This document shows, piece by piece, positions 7,101-36,520 of a DNA stretch of 64,000 bases (position 1 is the first letter of the stretch; each line of letters begins with the position of its first letter). A program made the translations under genes and the position numbers. The notes beneath the pieces are model-generated. The model made no database searches. It was not told the origin of the DNA and worked only from the letters and a program-made list of their open reading frames with translations. Source of the stretch: Escherichia coli (GTDB lineage: Bacteria > Pseudomonadota > Gammaproteobacteria > Enterobacterales > Enterobacteriaceae); the NCBI RefSeq assembly GCF_013315695.1, contig NZ_CP054353.1; one strand, 5' to 3'.

Positions 7101-7194
7101 GTTGCGATGAATGTCACATCCTCTGATCAATAACCATCGATTACCCTTTGCTGCAATTTGCAGCAACAACCATGAGAGTGAAATTCTTGTGATG

Positions 7195-11130: not shown

Positions 11131-11258
11131 ATTAAGAAGTCGCAATGAGTATTACTTTGTAAATTGCAGGGTATTGTTTAGCTATCTGTATAACCTGAAC
11201 GTGAGTACTCATTCTTCTCAGTGGCTATTTACCAATATAATTCGGTAATGACTCCAAC

Positions 11259-11762
11259 TTATTGATAGTGTTTTATGTTCAGATAATGCCCGATGACTTT
11301 GTCATGCAGCTCCACCGATTTTGAGAACGACAGCGACTTCCGTCCCAGCCGTGCCAGGTGCTGCCTCAGATTCAGGTTATGCCGCTCAATTCGCTGCGTA
11401 TATCGCTTGCTGATTACGTGCAGCTTTCCCTTCAGGCGGGATTCATACAGCGGCCAGCCATCCGTCATCCATATCACCACGTCAAAGGGTGACAGCAGGC
11501 TCATAAGACGCCCCAGCGTCGCCATAGTGCGTTCACCGAATACGTGCGCAACAACCGTCTTCCGGAGCCTGTCATACGCGTAAAACAGCCAGCGCTGGCG
11601 CGATTTAGCCCCGACATAGCCCCACTGTTCGTCCATTTCCGCGCAGACGATGACGTCACTGCCCGGCTGTATGCGCGAGGTTACCGACTGCGGCCTGAGT
11701 TTTTTAAGTGACGTAAAATCGTGTTGAGGCCAACGCCCATAATGCGGGCTGTTGCCCGGCAT
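11259..11762 (-). CDS. insB: IS1 InsB (transposase made as an InsAB fusion by -1 frameshift)
   Basis: 167-aa ORF overlapping insA in the -1 frame. Confidence 0.9.
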
Positions 11763-11956
11763 CCAACGCCATTCATGGCCATATCAATGATTTTCTGGTG
11801 CGTACCGGGTTGAGAAGCGGTGTAAGTGAACTGCAGTTGCCATGTTTTACGGCAGTGAGAGCAGAGATAGCGCTGATGTCCGGCGGTGCTTTTGCCGTTA
11901 CGCACCACTCCGTCAGTAGCTGAACAGGAGGGACAGCTGATAGAAACAGAAGCCAC
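11681..11956 (-). CDS. insA: IS1 InsA
   Basis: 91-aa zinc-finger ORF at the IRL side of IS1. Confidence 0.9.
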
Positions 11957-12011
11957 TGGAGCACCTCAAAAACACCATCATACGCTAAATCAGTAAGTTG
12001 GCAGCATCACC

Positions 12012-12418
12012 ATATAATTCCATTCACCATTTTTTAATTCAAACAGCTCTGGAAGAGATGACGGTTGCAGAGTCATACGTTTGAGTGGTGCATTTTCATC
12101 ACCCGGGATAACTTTATATCCCATTTTTGCATGGATCTCCGCTGTACCGGGATAGGCTTCTATACCAATTATTGGGTCATTACCCAACTCAATATTAGCA
12201 TTAAGTAATGCGGCAAGGGCGAATCCGGAAGAGTTTGCCACCCCTGAGACAGTCATTATCTGATCAATATAGATATCAATCCTTGGCTGCTCATTGGTCC
12301 ATCTTTTTGCCTGAGAAGTTGGAAGAGTTGAAATATATCCTATCGTGGTTCCGGCGTAACCTGGAACATTGCAGCCAGGGCCTAATGTTATTTCATGAAC
12401 TGTATAGTCCTCAACAGG
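12012..12418 (-). pseudogene. yjiC: yjiC 3' fragment (about codons 142-273), cut by IS1 at both ends
   Basis: Open frame on the minus strand across the whole interval; joins in frame with the 5' fragment at 26432-26854 through the shared 9-mer; natural stop would lie at 11225-11227 beyond the IS1; assignment to yjiC is by synteny (between uxuR and iraD) and by the reconstructed length of 276 codons. Confidence 0.75.
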
Positions 12419-12433
12419 GGTAATGACTCCAAC

Positions 12434-12937
12434 TTACTGATAGTGTTTTATGTTCAGATAATGCCCGATGACCTTGTCATGCAGCTCCACCGATTTTGAG
12501 AACGACAGTGACTTCCGTCCCAGCCTTGCCAGATGTTGTCTCAGATTCAGATTATGTCGCTCAATGCGCTGAGTGTAACGCTTGCTGATAACGTGCAGCT
12601 TTCCCTTCAGGCGTGATTCATACAGCGGCCAGCCATCCGTCATCCATACCACGACCTCAAAGGCCGACAGCAGGCTCAGAAGACGCTCCAGTGTGGCCAG
12701 AGTGCGTTCACCGAAGACGTGCGCCACAACCGTCCTCCGTATCCTGTCATACGCGTAAAACAGCCAGCGCTGACGTGATTTAGCACCGACGTAGCCCCAC
12801 TGTTCGTCCATTTCAGCGCAGACAATCACATCACTGCCCGGTTGTATGCGCGAGGTTACCGACTGCGGCCTGAGTTTTTTAAGTGACGTAAAACCGTGTT
12901 GAGGCCAACGCCCATAATGCGTGCACTGGCGCGACAT
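12434..12937 (-). CDS. insB: IS1 InsB (variant)
   Basis: 167-aa ORF. Confidence 0.9.
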
Positions 12938-13131
12938 CCGACGCCATTCATGGCCATATCAATGATTTTCTGGTGCTTACCGGGCTGAGAGGCGGTATAA
13001 GTGAACTGTAGTTGCCATGTTTTACGGCAATGAGAGCAGAGATAGCGCTGATGTCCGGCAGTGCTTTTGCCGTTACGCACCACGCCTTCAGTAGCGGAGC
13101 AGGAAGGACATCTGATGGAAATGGAAGCCAC
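12856..13131 (-). CDS. insA: IS1 InsA (variant)
   Basis: 91-aa ORF, about 90% identical to the standard copy. Confidence 0.9.
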
Positions 13132-13456
13132 GCAAGCACCTTAAAATCACCATCATACACTAAATCAGTAAGTTGGCAGCATTACCAAATTTTAATTACA
13201 CTTAAGGTGTATATTTTCTATGCAAGCCATCAATTAAAGAGGTGTAATGTGCTGATGACTATTTGTAATCGTTATACATTCTGACCTGGAGTCAGAAGGT
13301 ATTTCTCTGTCGGTGTGTTCACAGGCAGTGTGGTTGATTACATGAAATTCAGTACATTTGCAGTCTCGTTGCCCTTCTCGCCTGCCTTTCGTCATTACCG
13401 ACGGTATTGAATTTCGTTTTGCCCGTTGGGGTTCTCCGGACAAGGAGTTGTTTGTT

Positions 13457-24983: not shown

Positions 24984-25455
24984 TTTGCGCACTCCTGACG
25001 TTTAGCAACATATGCGGCTTGCCCTGAACACCGGGCACCACTGTATTGATGCTCATTTTCCATAGCCATTCCCTTTTGTTCATTACATCCATGTCAGTCT
25101 GAGACAGGCCTGAATCCTGTCAGCAAAGTATAAAACCTTACTTGCCTATGAATATCTACTGACTTTTCAGGAAAAAAGTCATGATTTGATAAAAATCATC
25201 AAACTCAAAAAAAAACCGCTAGTATATTCTGAATATTCCGAATAGTTACGTAGATGAAAATACTTGTCACCACCGCTACTTAATTCCGGTGGGAAATTAT
25301 TTATTTCCGCATAATCAGCCATGTATTATTTAAAACAATTAGTTTGTAAATAATATAAATTGATAACATATCAAATACATCAAAAATACCATTCACAGGC
25401 ATTATTAATATAGACATCAATATAGCAACATCAAATTCCAGGTAATGACTCCAAC

Positions 25456-25959
25456 TTATTGATAGTGTTTTATGTTCAGATAATGCCCGATGACTTTGTC
25501 ATGCAGCTCCACCGATTTTGAGAACGACAGCGACTTCCGTCCCAGCCGTGCCAGGTGCTGCCTCAGATTCAGGTTATGCCGCTCAATTCGCTGCGTATAT
25601 CGCTTGCTGATTACGTGCAGCTTTCCCTTCAGGCGGGATTCATACAGCGGCCAGCCATCCGTCATCCATATCACCACGTCAAAGGGTGACAGCAGGCTCA
25701 TAAGACGCCCCAGCGTCGCCATAGTGCGTTCACCGAATACGTGCGCAACAACCGTCTTCCGGAGCCTGTCATACGCGTAAAACAGCCAGCGCTGGCGCGA
25801 TTTAGCCCCGACATAGCCCCACTGTTCGTCCATTTCCGCGCAGACGATGACGTCACTGCCCGGCTGTATGCGCGAGGTTACCGACTGCGGCCTGAGTTTT
25901 TTAAGTGACGTAAAATCGTGTTGAGGCCAACGCCCATAATGCGGGCTGTTGCCCGGCAT
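25456..25959 (-). CDS. insB: IS1 InsB
   Basis: 167-aa ORF. Confidence 0.9.
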
Positions 25960-26153
25960 CCAACGCCATTCATGGCCATATCAATGATTTTCTGGTGCGT
26001 ACCGGGTTGAGAAGCGGTGTAAGTGAACTGCAGTTGCCATGTTTTACGGCAGTGAGAGCAGAGATAGCGCTGATGTCCGGCGGTGCTTTTGCCGTTACGC
26101 ACCACCCCGTCAGTAGCTGAACAGGAGGGACAGCTGATAGAAACAGAAGCCAC
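25878..26153 (-). CDS. insA: IS1 InsA
   Basis: 91-aa ORF. Confidence 0.9.
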
Positions 26154-26431
26154 TGGAGCACCTCAAAAACACCATCATACACTAAATCAGTAAGTTGGCA
26201 GCATCACCCAAATTCCAATTAGTAATAAGATATGCTTTTAAATTGCATGCAAATAATTTTAAATGAGCGTTTTTTGATACTTTAGAGTGTTTCCCACCAT
26301 TTAATATCACTGTGTAGAGTTGATATCACTACAACAGAAACATGCATGTCATTTGTTTACTTCTCTTTTTACTACAGAAAAATTTATCTATTTTTCTAAG
26401 CATCAGTGAAATACTCATAAAGGTAACTATT

Positions 26432-26854: not shown

Positions 26855-26909
26855 GGTAATGCTGCCAACTTACTGATTTAGTGTATGATGGTGATTTTAA
26901 GGTGCTTGC

Positions 26910-27185
26910 GTGGCTTCCATTTCCATCAGATGTCCTTCCTGCTCCGCTACTGAAGGCGTGGTGCGTAACGGCAAAAGCACTGCCGGACATCAGCGCTATC
27001 TCTGCTCTCATTGCCGTAAAACATGGCAACTACAGTTCACTTATACCGCCTCTCAGCCCGGTAAGCACCAGAAAATCATTGATATGGCCATGAATGGCGT
27101 CGGATGTCGCGCCAGTGCACGCATTATGGGCGTTGGCCTCAACACGGTTTTACGTCACTTAAAAAACTCAGGCCGCAGTCGGTAA
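26910..27185 (+). CDS. insA: IS1 InsA (variant)
   Basis: 91-aa ORF. Confidence 0.9.
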
Positions 27186-27607
27186 CCTCGCGCATACAAC
27201 CGGGCAGTGATGTGATTGTCTGCGCTGAAATGGACGAACAGTGGGGCTACGTCGGTGCTAAATCACGTCAGCGCTGGCTGTTTTACGCGTATGACAGGAT
27301 ACGGAGGACGGTTGTGGCGCACGTCTTCGGTGAACGCACTCTGGCCACACTGGAGCGTCTTCTGAGCCTGCTGTCGGCCTTTGAGGTCGTGGTATGGATG
27401 ACGGATGGCTGGCCGCTGTATGAATCACGCCTGAAGGGAAAGCTGCACGTTATCAGCAAGCGTTACACTCAGCGCATTGAGCGACATAATCTGAATCTGA
27501 GACAACATCTGGCAAGGCTGGGACGGAAGTCACTGTCGTTCTCAAAATCGGTGGAGCTGCATGACAAGGTCATCGGGCATTATCTGAACATAAAACACTA
27601 TCAGTAA
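27104..27607 (+). CDS. insB: IS1 InsB (variant)
   Basis: 167-aa ORF; TTAAAAAAC frameshift motif at 27149-27157. Confidence 0.9.
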
Positions 27608-27805
27608 GTTGGAGTCATTACCCGACAGCGAGGTGTTTAGTGTGCCATGTCAGGCGAGAAATTCTATTGGATGAATCAAGTCCAACTTACTCATTGTCAA
27701 TTTCATGGTTGATTATTCGAAACGTGATGCTATTTCCAACATCAACGCTATAATTGCAGAATAATTGTAGATACATTTTTGTATATACAATTAGGGATGG
27801 CAATT

Positions 27806-29624: not shown

Positions 29625-31775
29625 TTAGTGGTGCGAAGAGATCTTCACGCCGCCTTCCGGGATTGGAACGTACGGTGTTTCTTTGTCAGTACGTTTGTCG
29701 CTGTTACGCACCGCAAGCCAGGTTTTGAAACCGTAGAAGATGATGCTGTACACCACAATCAGGAACAGAATACTCAGACCTGCGTTGGTGTAGTTGTTCA
29801 CAACGATGTGGTTCATGTTGGCAATCTGCTGCGTCGTCAGGTCAGTACCGTTAGCAATCTTCTCTTTGTACTGGCTTGCCATGTAGAAGAAGCCTTCCAT
29901 CTGCGGGTTGGTGCTGAACAGTTTCAGGCCCAGCGCCCAGGTGGTGCAGATAAGCAGCCATACAGCCGGAACAACAGTTACCCAGATGTATTGGGTGCGC
30001 TTCATCTTAATCAGCACAACGGTGCCCAGTACCAGCGCTACGGCTGCCAGCATCTGGTTGGAAATACCGAACAGCGGCCACAGGCTCTTAACGCCGCCCA
30101 GCGGATCGACCACGCCCTGATACAGCAGGTAGCCCCACAGACCCACACAGCCCGCAGTACCGATGATACCGGCAACCAGAGAGTCGGTTTTTTTCAGGAA
30201 CGGGATGAAGTTACCCAGCAGGTCTTGCAGCATAAAGCGGCCAGAACGGGTACCCGCATCCAGCGCGGTCAGGATGAACAGTGCTTCGAACAGAATACCG
30301 AAGTGATACCAGAAGCCCATGTCAGCCATCGGCAGCACTTTGTGGAACACGTGAGCGATACCTACCGCCAGCGTCGGCGCACCACCTGCACGGTTCAGGA
30401 CAGAAGGCTCACCAATGTCTTTCGCGGTTTGCAGGATCTGCTCTGGCGAAATCACGAAGCCCCAAGAGCTGACGGTCGCTGCCGCGTGTGCGGTAACGTC
30501 TTTCAGCTGCGCCATGATGATCGGCGCGTTCTCGCCCCCCATTTCATGCAGGTTAGGCATGGTGATGCCAAGGCCAGCAGGCGGGGTGTTCATCGCGAAG
30601 TAAAGACCCGGTTCGATGATGGACGCAGCAACCAGCGCCATAATCGCCACGAAGGACTCCATCAGCATTGCGCCGTAGCCGATGAAACGCGCGTCGGTTT
30701 CATTAGCCAGCAGTTTTGGCGTCGTACCGGAAGAGATCAGCGCGTGGAAGCCAGATACCGCACCACAGGCGATGGTGATGAACAGGAACGGGAACAGAGC
30801 GCCTTTCCACAGCGGGCCAGTACCGTCAATGTACTGGGTCATGGCAGGCATTTTCAGTTCCGGGTTCAGCACCACGATACCCAGCGCCAGGCCGACGATA
30901 ACGCCGATTTTCAGGAAGGTTGCCAGATAGTCGCGCGGTGCGAGGATCAGCCACACTGGCAGCAGTGCGGAAACAAACGCATAGCCAATCAGCGCGAAGG
31001 TAATGGTGGTGTCTTTAAAGGTCAGTGCCGGACCCCAGTACGGATCGTGAGCAATCACGCCACCGAAGTAGATAGAGGCAACCAGCAGCACGATACCAAT
31101 GACAGAGACTTCACCCACACGCCCCGGACGAATAAAGCGCATGTAGATACCCATAAACAGCGCAATCGGTACGGTTGAGCAAACGGTGAAGACACCCCAC
31201 GGACTTTCGGCCAGGGCTTTAACCACAATCAGCGCCAGGACGGCGAGGATGATGATCATGATTAAGAAACAGCCAAACAGCGCGATAGTCCCCGGTACTG
31301 GTCCCATCTCTTCTTTGATCATCTCACCAAGAGATGCGCCATTACGGCGAGAGGAGATAAACAGCACCATAAAGTCCTGAACCGCACCGGCCAGCACGAC
31401 CCCCGCCAGCAGCCACAGCGTGCCAGGCAGGTAGCCCATCTGCGCGGCGAGAACCGGACCCACCAGCGGACCAGCACCGGCGATAGCGGCGAAGTGGTGA
31501 CCAAACAACACGTAACGGTTGGTCGGAACGTAGTTCAGACCGTCGTTGTTAATAACCGCAGGCGTCGCGCGCGTGGGGTCGAGTTTCATCACCTTCTGGG
31601 CGATGTACAGACTGTAGTAGCGATACGCCACCAGATACACCGACACAGAGGCGACCACGATCCACAGGGCGCTGACGTGCTCCCCCCGACGTAATGCAAC
31701 TACCGCGAGGCAGAATGCACCGATGATTCCGAGAATCACCCAGGGTATGTGCTTGAATATCTTTTTAGTATCCAT
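29625..31775 (-). CDS. btsT: Pyruvate/H+ symporter BtsT (YjiY, CstA family)
   Basis: 716 aa from MDTKKIFKHIPW; recognised sequence. Confidence 0.92.
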   Translation of the reverse strand: MDTKKIFKHIPWVILGIIGAFCLAVVALRRGEHVSALWIVVASVSVYLVAYRYYSLYIAQKVMKLDPTRATPAVINNDGLNYVPTNRYVLFGHHFAAIAGAGPLVGPVLAAQMGYLPGTLWLLAGVVLAGAVQDFMVLFISSRRNGASLGEMIKEEMGPVPGTIALFGCFLIMIIILAVLALIVVKALAESPWGVFTVCSTVPIALFMGIYMRFIRPGRVGEVSVIGIVLLVASIYFGGVIAHDPYWGPALTFKDTTITFALIGYAFVSALLPVWLILAPRDYLATFLKIGVIVGLALGIVVLNPELKMPAMTQYIDGTGPLWKGALFPFLFITIACGAVSGFHALISSGTTPKLLANETDARFIGYGAMLMESFVAIMALVAASIIEPGLYFAMNTPPAGLGITMPNLHEMGGENAPIIMAQLKDVTAHAAATVSSWGFVISPEQILQTAKDIGEPSVLNRAGGAPTLAVGIAHVFHKVLPMADMGFWYHFGILFEALFILTALDAGTRSGRFMLQDLLGNFIPFLKKTDSLVAGIIGTAGCVGLWGYLLYQGVVDPLGGVKSLWPLFGISNQMLAAVALVLGTVVLIKMKRTQYIWVTVVPAVWLLICTTWALGLKLFSTNPQMEGFFYMASQYKEKIANGTDLTTQQIANMNHIVVNNYTNAGLSILFLIVVYSIIFYGFKTWLAVRNSDKRTDKETPYVPIPEGGVKISSHH

Positions 31776-31987
31776 AGTAAAACCTGGCATGTATTGATTA
31801 ATAGTTGGCCGAAGCCGTTCTAGGTTTGCGTTGCGTTTGAGGAGGTAAATTGACCGCTATCCTGTAGTGATGTTGCCAGAGTTACGCGCGCGTAAAGTAA
31901 GGTAAATAACTGAGTGGTTATTTTAGGGATGTAAGCGGTCAGTTTTGCGGTTGAGCGGCAAAGGCGTCGTTTAAGTGACGATAAATA

Positions 31988-32003
31988 TGTGATTCATATC
32001 ACA
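31988..32003. promoter_or_regulatory. Putative CRP binding site in the btsT-tsr intergenic region
   Basis: tgtgattcatatcaca is a perfect TGTGA-N6-TCACA palindrome. Confidence 0.5.
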
Positions 32004-32151
32004 TATTTATATTGTGAGTAATTTATGTAAATAATGGCTTTTTAAATTCAGAGTGTGAATAAAATTACTCGGCGTAATCTCCGCGGGATATTCATAAAGT
32101 TTTTCCTTTCCTGGCCGAAAATCTTGCATCGGTCCACAGGAAAGAGAAACC

Positions 32152-33813
32152 ATGTTAAAACGTATCAAAATTGTGACCAGCTTACTGCTGGTTTTGGCCG
32201 TTTTTGGCCTTTTACAACTGACATCAGGCGGTCTGTTCTTTAATGCCTTAAAGAATGACAAAGAAAATTTCACTGTTTTACAAACCATTCGCCAGCAGCA
32301 ATCCACGCTGAATGGCAGCTGGGTCGCGTTGTTGCAGACGCGTAACACCCTCAACCGCGCGGGTATCCGCTACATGATGGATCAGAATAATATTGGTAGC
32401 GGTTCAACCGTTGCTGAGCTGATGGAGAGTGCCAGTATTTCGCTGAAACAGGCGGAAAAAAACTGGGCGGATTACGAAGCGTTGCCGCGTGACCCGCGTC
32501 AGAGCACCGCCGCAGCGGCAGAGATCAAACGTAATTACGATATTTATCACAATGCGCTGGCGGAGCTGATCCAACTGTTAGGTGCAGGCAAAATCAACGA
32601 GTTCTTTGATCAGCCGACCCAGGGATATCAGGACGGTTTCGAGAAGCAGTATGTGGCTTACATGGAGCAAAACGATCGGCTCTATGATATCGCCGTCAGC
32701 GATAATAATGCCTCCTACAGCCAGGCGATGTGGATTCTGGTGGGCGTGATGATCGTCGTACTGGCGGTCATCTTCGCCGTCTGGTTCGGTATTAAAGCCT
32801 CGCTGGTAGCGCCAATGAATCGCCTGATTGACAGCATTCGTCATATTGCAGGCGGCGATCTGGTGAAACCGATTGAGGTGGATGGCTCTAATGAGATGGG
32901 GCAACTGGCAGAGAGTTTGCGCCATATGCAGGGAGAGCTGATGCGTACCGTCGGTGATGTGCGCAACGGGGCCAATGCCATTTATAGCGGTGCCAGCGAA
33001 ATCGCCACCGGCAATAACGATCTCTCTTCGCGCACCGAGCAACAGGCCGCTTCGCTGGAAGAGACGGCAGCCAGCATGGAGCAACTGACCGCAACGGTGA
33101 AACAGAACGCCGAGAATGCGCGCCAGGCCAGCCACCTGGCGTTAAGTGCTTCTGAAACGGCGCAACGTGGCGGCAAAGTGGTGGATAACGTAGTACAGAC
33201 TATGCGCGATATCTCCACCAGCTCGCAGAAAATCGCCGATATTATCAGCGTAATTGACGGCATTGCCTTCCAGACCAATATTCTGGCTTTGAACGCGGCG
33301 GTTGAAGCAGCGCGTGCGGGTGAGCAAGGGCGCGGTTTTGCGGTGGTTGCGGGAGAAGTGCGTAATCTGGCCCAGCGTAGCGCCCAGGCGGCTCGTGAAA
33401 TTAAAAGCCTGATTGAAGACTCGGTGGGGAAAGTGGATGTTGGCTCTACGCTGGTCGAAAGCGCCGGGGAAACAATGGCGGAGATTGTCAGTGCTGTGAC
33501 CCGCGTGACGGACATTATGGGCGAAATAGCTTCTGCTTCTGATGAGCAGAGCCGTGGTATCGATCAGGTTGGCTTAGCGGTCGCTGAGATGGACCGGGTA
33601 ACTCAACAGAACGCTGCGCTGGTGGAAGAATCTGCCGCCGCCGCCGCGCTGGAAGAGCAGGCCAGTCGCCTGACCGAAGCTGTGGCAGTGTTCCGGATTC
33701 AGCAACAGCAGCAACATCAGCGTGAAACATCGGCTGTGGTAAAAACCGTGACGCCAGCTGCGCCGCGTAAAATGGCCGTAGCAGATAGCGGGGAGAACTG
33801 GGAAACGTTTTAA
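32152..33813 (+). CDS. tsr: Serine chemoreceptor Tsr (methyl-accepting chemotaxis protein I)
   Basis: 553-aa ORF with HAMP and MCP signalling domains, C-terminal NWETF pentapeptide; recognised Tsr. Confidence 0.93.
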
Positions 33814-35223: not shown

Positions 35224-35325
35224 GCCGGACTCCTATATTTATAATTTTAATTGTTTACGTAATTGTGCATTACGCAAGGTTGACATTAACGGCAGGTTAA
35301 AGTTTTAGGACTTTACTACCGCTCA

Positions 35326-36520
<1,195 letters not shown>

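Follow-up and report, generated by a model that had tools for sequence, protein, structure and literature searches.

The btsT-tsr intergenic spacer

The window, by which we mean the whole 64-kb stretch of Escherichia coli DNA that was analysed, was examined around positions 31776-32151. According to the ORF coordinates and the annotation of matching E. coli genomes, this segment is exactly the intergenic interval between btsT (formerly yjiY) and tsr. An earlier note on this DNA, made from the sequence alone, had taken the region for the btsT-tsr divergent spacer, which is borne out by the positions of the two ATG codons (Table 1) and by the genome matches. The three sequence strings singled out in that note were found where it had placed them, TGTGATTCATATCACA at 31988-32003, gaccgctat at 31852-31860 and aagcggtcag at 31933-31942.

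Positions 31500-32400 were matched in 5,390 of 5,426 complete E. coli genomes, with the flanking genes annotated as btsT and tsr. Compared with MG1655, the 240 bp of spacer nearest to btsT showed no difference, and the tsr side had two substitutions and a single 1-bp indel, no more. As the btsT-proximal 240 bp are identical to MG1655, data obtained with K-12 are directly applicable to the window.

Elsewhere in the window, four copies of IS1-family elements were located (11243-12015, 12418-13190, 25437-26221 and 26855-27623). Compared with E. coli strain 720632, the DNA between these copies is rearranged or inverted, and about 1.2 kb of the window (35325-36520) is without a counterpart there.

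Table 1. Features of the btsT-tsr spacer in window coordinates; promoter positions are relative to the btsT transcription start.
Feature	Position	Strand	Remarks
btsT start codon, ATG	31775	minus	pyruvate/proton symporter
btsT 5' UTR, 88 nt	31776-31863	minus	from the published start site; includes gaccgctat
btsT transcription start, A	31863	minus	88 nt 5' of the ATG; Reg-Seq supplement
Putative extended -10, TGgCAACAT	31870-31878	minus	-15 to -7; from alignment conservation and fit to the start site
'yjiY YehT bs' SPR oligonucleotide stretch	31907-31964	minus	0 mismatches; covers R1, R2 and R3
R3, BtsR/YehT repeat, ACCACTCA	31911-31918	minus	exact motif; centre -51.5 (-55 to -48); spacer from R2 13 bp
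R2, BtsR/YehT repeat, ACCGCTTA	31932-31939	minus	exact motif; centre -72.5; inside the published oligonucleotide
R1, candidate third BtsR-like repeat, GCCGCTCA	31952-31959	minus	1 mismatch to ACCRCTYA; centre -92.5; spacer to R2 12 bp
Extended perfect palindrome with A/T-rich flanks	31981-32010		arms of 13 nt (31981-31993, 31998-32010), centre of 4 nt
cAMP-CRP site core, TGTGATTCATATCACA	31988-32003		centre 31995.5, -132.5; unique match, SELEX, conservation
tsr sigma-28 (FliA) promoter, TAAAGTTT-N11-GCCGAAAA	32095-32121	plus	1 mismatch, 0.02 expected
tsr start codon, ATG	32152	plus

Transcription start site and core promoter of btsT

The start site was taken from Supplementary file 1 of the Reg-Seq study (PMC7567609), in which the sole experimentally validated yjiY TSS is at 4591367 on the reverse strand, citing Kraxenberger 2012. 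With the ATG of MG1655 btsT at 4591279, the start lies 88 nt upstream, corresponding to window position 31863. A figure source file from that study gives 4591397 for yjiY, a discrepancy of 30 bp. We preferred 4591367, because the conserved TGnCAnnAT then falls at -15 to -7; a start at 4591397 would place the proximal BtsR repeat within the core promoter. The conserved element, TGgCAACAT in the window, probably represents the extended -10 of btsT. In 58 of 75 loci (see below), TGNCANNAT was perfect at a distance of 38-40 bp from the start of the proximal repeat R3.

A scan with the sigma-70 consensus did not detect the btsT promoter, which is no surprise in a promoter that depends on activators and has a poor -35. 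It returned only two weak hits, both in the AT-rich stretch 32006-32059; as they did not exceed the shuffled expectation, they were rejected as promoters. The pair TTTACC-16-TAACTC was rejected as -35 and -10, since its -10 is unconserved, whereas TGnCAnnAT is conserved and fits the start. Reading the conserved TGGCA as a sigma-54 element was discarded upon inspection, TTGC being absent at -12.

For yjiY, the Reg-Seq supplement (PMC7567609) also names the regulators 'BtsR CRP', with the remark 'CRP outside of area'. The gene appears in the supplement entries only, and the main text contains no yjiY footprint. Papers on iModulons, on Salmonella and on the evolution of two-component systems held no site-level information on the btsT promoter.

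The CRP palindrome

CRP sites were scored by mismatch counts against shuffled sequence and by the published PhyloScan ranking. Apart from TGTGATTCATATCACA, the 64 kb contain no perfect TGTGA-N6-TCACA; the shuffles gave an expectation of 0.04. By direct reading, the core fits the consensus at 10/10 positions of TGTGA/TCACA, at 12/12 positions of TGTGAT/ATCACA, and at 17/22 positions of the 22-mer AAATGTGATCTAGATCACATTT. The extension of the palindrome beyond the core is specific to the K-12-type allele of the spacer, the core being flanked differently in the other E. coli alleles described below.

The earlier note was correct in calling this a perfect CRP site. In addition to being unique in the window, the 16-mer has been published as a SELEX target: the genomic SELEX supplement of Shimada et al. 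(2011) lists 'yjiY< >tsr TGTGATTCATATCACA' among the cAMP-CRP targets (in vitro SELEX-chip). PhyloScan (2007) placed yjiY fourth to seventh genome-wide among its predicted CRP sites. At the level of expression, yjiY transcription has been described as controlled by cAMP/CRP and YehT (BtsR), with CsrA regulating translation; the activity of PbtsT-lux was abolished in a crp deletion, and btsT expression requires both CRP and BtsR. The palindrome is the published CRP site; it is real, strongly conserved and already known.

Relative to the published btsT start, its centre at -132.5 is unusually far upstream and outside the class I and class II positions; precedents for such a distance are known only from promoters with a second activator. 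By our own arithmetic, it is off the classical class I register (-61.5, -72.5, -82.5, -92.5). The Reg-Seq constructs are said to span -115 to +45, and the remark 'CRP outside of area' fits a site at -132.5, beyond that range.

The runner-up among the CRP-like sites of the window was TGCGATGAATGTCACA at 7103-7118, with one mismatch, in the divergent spacer between uxuA and gntP. It is the CRP box given for gntP<>uxuAB in the SELEX table of Shimada et al. (2011).

BtsR repeats upstream of the btsT promoter

The motif of BtsR (YehT) is reportedly ACC[G/A]CT[C/T]A, its copies being separated by a spacer of 13 bp. This wording is indirectly supported by the comparative alignment and by the published 'yjiY YehT bs' oligonucleotide of the Jung laboratory, the sequence of which is given in PMC4847170. 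Single ACCRCTYA octamers occurred 12 times in the window against 6.5 expected, which is not clearly above chance. The array of three octamers with 12- and 13-bp spacers (31911-31959, minus strand, one mismatch) was unique in the window, with 0 expected. R1, R2 and R3 all have the same orientation and are located just upstream of the btsT core promoter.

The earlier note had suspected response-regulator direct repeats in this region and had paired two ACCGCT-type strings. The one near 31935 is a genuine repeat, R2, whereas the one at 31852-31860 is the wrong partner (see below); the true partner of R2 is R3. Conservation of the BtsR motif in gamma-proteobacteria has already been published, in a paper that is silent on CRP.

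Conservation of the module across Enterobacterales

A scan of species-representative genomes for the BtsT N-terminus yielded 80 Enterobacterales loci. The comparative set comprised 78 sequences, namely 77 loci and the window, each with at least 260 nt upstream. In 75 of the 78, the composite loci, three repeats were combined with a CRP-like site that had 0-2 mismatches in its core. The CRP centre lay 36.5 bp from the start of R1 in 66 loci, 35.5 bp in 8 and 37.5 bp in one. From start to start, R1 and R2 are separated by 20 bp (67 loci) or 21 bp (8 loci), and R2 and R3 by 20 bp (42 loci) or 21 bp (33 loci). Such spacing amounts to about two turns of the helix. At this fixed 20/21-bp spacing, the R1 position carried 0-1 mismatches in 73 of the 75 composite loci. 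Judging from the sequence, R1 is probably a BtsR-binding site.

In an alignment of 70 sequences, the CRP half-sites, the three octamers and the -10 were conserved at 90-99% (R2 at about 99%), and the intervening sequence at 10-60%. The module spans several families of the Enterobacterales, from Escherichia to Proteus, Erwinia and Lonsdalea.

In Pantoea coffeiphila (locus L067), four consecutive perfect ACCGCTYA octamers with 20-bp spacing were found 5' of btsT (-182, -162, -142 and -122 from the ATG). With four repeats there instead of three, the length of the repeat array differs between lineages.

Alleles of the spacer in E. coli

Three alleles of the spacer's upstream half occur among the 5,426 complete E. 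coli genomes. The K-12-type allele, to which the window belongs, has the 376-bp spacer and was found in 2,632 genomes (~49%). In the hpa-linked allele (2,231 genomes, ~41%), btsT and tsr are separated by the 4-hydroxyphenylacetate cluster. The third allele (363 genomes, ~7%) carries an unannotated 180-aa ORF and includes O157:H7; the 180-aa protein had no match to a Pfam family.

The three alleles part exactly at the first base of R1 (window 31959). The interval from R1 to the CRP core is 29 bp in all of them, differing in sequence and equal in length, and all three hold a perfect TGTGA-N6-TCACA, with different N6 and flanks. R1 is degenerate in the K-12-type allele (GCCGCTCA) and perfect in the other two (ACCGCTCA), as it is in most other lineages. 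In strains with the hpa cluster, the CRP site remains beside btsT, and tsr keeps just about 60 bp of shared upstream sequence, including the sigma-28 promoter (locus L085).

Assignment of the CRP site to btsT

Sigma-28 (FliA) promoters of the flagellar and chemotaxis class 3 have the consensus TAAAGTTT-N11-GCCGATAA. The promoter upstream of tsr agrees with it at 15 of 16 positions and was kept in 21 of the 22 loci in which tsr adjoins btsT. A SELEX peak of the RpoF holoenzyme has been reported within the yjiY/tsr spacer.

The earlier note had not said which of the two genes the CRP site serves. It could be shared with the divergent tsr promoter, or be mainly for it, with CRP activating tsr directly: the site is located between divergent genes, its distance to the end of the tsr sigma-28 -10, about 126 bp downstream, roughly mirrors that to the start of btsT, and the SELEX paper notes that a divergent pair may have both of its genes as targets. 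The comparative data speak against this. Across the 22 tsr-adjacent genomes, the CRP centre lay 87.5 to 131.5 bp from the sigma-28 -10, a variation of 44 bp, whereas its distance to R1 stays constant within 1 bp. Just 22 of 72 loci have tsr as the upstream neighbour of btsT, and the module persists regardless, the CRP site being kept in the 50 loci with another upstream neighbour. Moreover, the hpa cluster separates tsr from the CRP site in roughly two fifths of the complete E. coli genomes, leaving tsr with the sigma-28 promoter and only about 60 bp of shared sequence upstream. From the fixed distance to R1, the variable distance to tsr, the loci with other neighbours and the hpa strains, the CRP site was assigned to btsT, and a role in tsr transcription appears very improbable. 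On these comparisons, the CRP site is to be regarded as an element of btsT, and tsr is predicted to run from its own self-contained sigma-28 promoter, without using the CRP site.

We therefore regard 31988-32003 as the cAMP-CRP operator of btsT and as the most upstream element of a fixed activation module on the minus strand, with a probability of about 0.88.

Proposed mode of CRP action

The compact module is arranged in the order CRP (-132.5), R1 (-92.5), R2 (-72.5), R3 (-51.5), a weak -35 with the putative extended -10, the start at 31863, the 88-nt UTR and btsT. External pyruvate is sensed by BtsS, leading to activation of BtsR, the proximal activator of btsT; the input from carbon limitation is supplied by cAMP-CRP. 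Because CRP lies beyond the BtsR array, we infer that it most likely serves as a class III-type co-activator. By bending the DNA, it could stabilise or position the BtsR array, or, alternatively, upstream DNA could be brought to the C-terminal domain of the RNA polymerase alpha subunit. That CRP is strictly coupled to R1 and not to tsr speaks for an interaction with the BtsR-DNA complex.

The effect of CRP on btsT is probably direct, through 31988-32003. An indirect dependence would work via btsSR expression, cAMP physiology or pyruvate excretion, with the palindrome binding CRP in vitro but leaving the promoter unaffected. According to one secondary source, BtsSR is activated by cAMP-CRP, which would permit such a route, and -132.5 is an atypical position for CRP. 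We nevertheless consider an indirect dependence very improbable: the site is kept at 35.5-37.5 bp from R1 across several families of the Enterobacterales while its flanks decay, and three E. coli alleles that otherwise diverge still have the perfect core, a conservation that argues strongly against it.

The motif at 31852-31860 and the btsT 5' UTR

The string gaccgctat corresponds to +4 to +12 of the btsT transcript, where the mRNA reads AUAGCGGUC. The two ACCGCT strings of the earlier note form an inverted pair, not a direct one, with 12-nt arms that are complementary at 11 of 12 positions and 75 nt apart. We considered whether the motif at 31852-31860 (plus strand, ACCGCTAT) could be one more BtsR site, inverted and placed early in the transcribed region, acting as a brake or as a looping partner of R2, with which it shares TGACCGCT in addition to the inverted repeat; the motif is also kept within Escherichia (loci L002-L004). 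However, it lies in the opposite orientation to the BtsR array, unfit for a LytTR direct-repeat array, has two mismatches to ACC[G/A]CT[C/T]A, both at 3' positions, and lacks a partner at 20-21 bp. Across the 70 aligned species, its GCGG core shows 10-40% conservation, the majority sequence at this place being ATAACA-TCAA, and single octamer matches often arise by chance alone. On this evidence the motif does not belong to the array, and we give a BtsR site at this position hardly any credence.

Folding of the btsT 5' UTR was no better than that of shuffled sequence (z = +0.96), and a search of Rfam gave no credible match for it; an RNA element in the UTR was rejected on these two grounds.

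Two further observations concern the leader. A pyrimidine tract, UACCUCCUCAAAC, lies at 31833-31845 (mRNA +19 to +31) and shows 60-80% identity across the 70 species; its opposite strand reads as a strong Shine-Dalgarno-like GAGGAGG. No stable pairing was predicted for the tract. Furthermore, an insertion of about 123-125 bp was found in the btsT 5' UTR between about -14 and -33 from the ATG (about 775-905 in locus L082, also in L003, L004, L012 and L045). Its hosts are hpa-linked E. coli, E. albertii, a strain of an Escherichia clade and Citrobacter portucalensis. The insertion contains TGTAAGCTCCCGGGGATTCAC and CGTTCACCCCTGTCACTTACT, which we take to match the ERIC1R and ERIC2 primers; it would then presumably be a leader-transcribed ERIC/IRU repeat.

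Relation to known systems and significance

Promoters with class III co-activation include acs P2 (CRP at -122.5), malK/malE with MalT, and proP P2 with Fis. Like these, the btsT promoter has CRP more than 100 bp upstream, another activator between CRP and RNA polymerase, and a need for both inputs. Unlike these examples, its partner is a LytTR response regulator and it has a single CRP site, at -132.5. The promoter of the paralogous cstA resembles that of btsT in serving a CstA-family pyruvate transporter, in depending on CRP and in CsrA acting on translation. The cstA CRP site is unusually distant, about 80 nt upstream of the start. Unlike btsT, cstA is without BtsR control and is repressed by Fis. 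The tsr promoter is like other sigma-28 class 3 promoters, and is a neighbour of the CRP/BtsR module, not part of it.

The CRP site shows no difference of substance from that of K-12 yjiY (Shimada et al., 2011; Kraxenberger et al., 2012), with the same 16-mer, the same gene pair and the same CRP dependence; it is the same element in another strain of E. coli. The known BtsR/YehT operator of yjiY is matched by R2 and R3, which are exact, have the 13-bp spacer and lie upstream of the promoter. It is departed from in that most Enterobacterales have three repeats, not two, the upstream copy of the K-12-type allele having one mismatch.

The literature already covers the CRP site, the BtsR repeats and the logic of regulation, and confirming the CRP site adds little. 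What is added is the assignment of this site to btsT and the corrected pairing of the repeats. Further, modest additions are evidence from genome comparison for a conserved third BtsR-type repeat and for a distance between CRP and the repeats that is fixed within 1 bp, and the three versions of the promoter's upstream half seen in E. coli.

Taken further, the btsT region may be a rigid module of four sites, CRP and three BtsR sites in place of the two described, with a geometry frozen within 1 bp across the Enterobacterales, in which CRP works through the BtsR array and not directly on RNA polymerase, and of which the K-12-type allele (~49%) has a weakened R1 (GCCGCTCA) and another sequence from R1 to the CRP site. 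We put this forward tentatively, as a combination that has the odds somewhat against it. If it holds, the standard laboratory promoter would answer pyruvate and cAMP differently from the hpa-linked and O157-type alleles.

BtsT is a pyruvate/H+ symporter of high affinity, and its promoter joins external pyruvate, via BtsS/BtsR, with carbon status, via cAMP-CRP. The third repeat, the fixed geometry and the three alleles could guide work on co-activation by a LytTR regulator and CRP.
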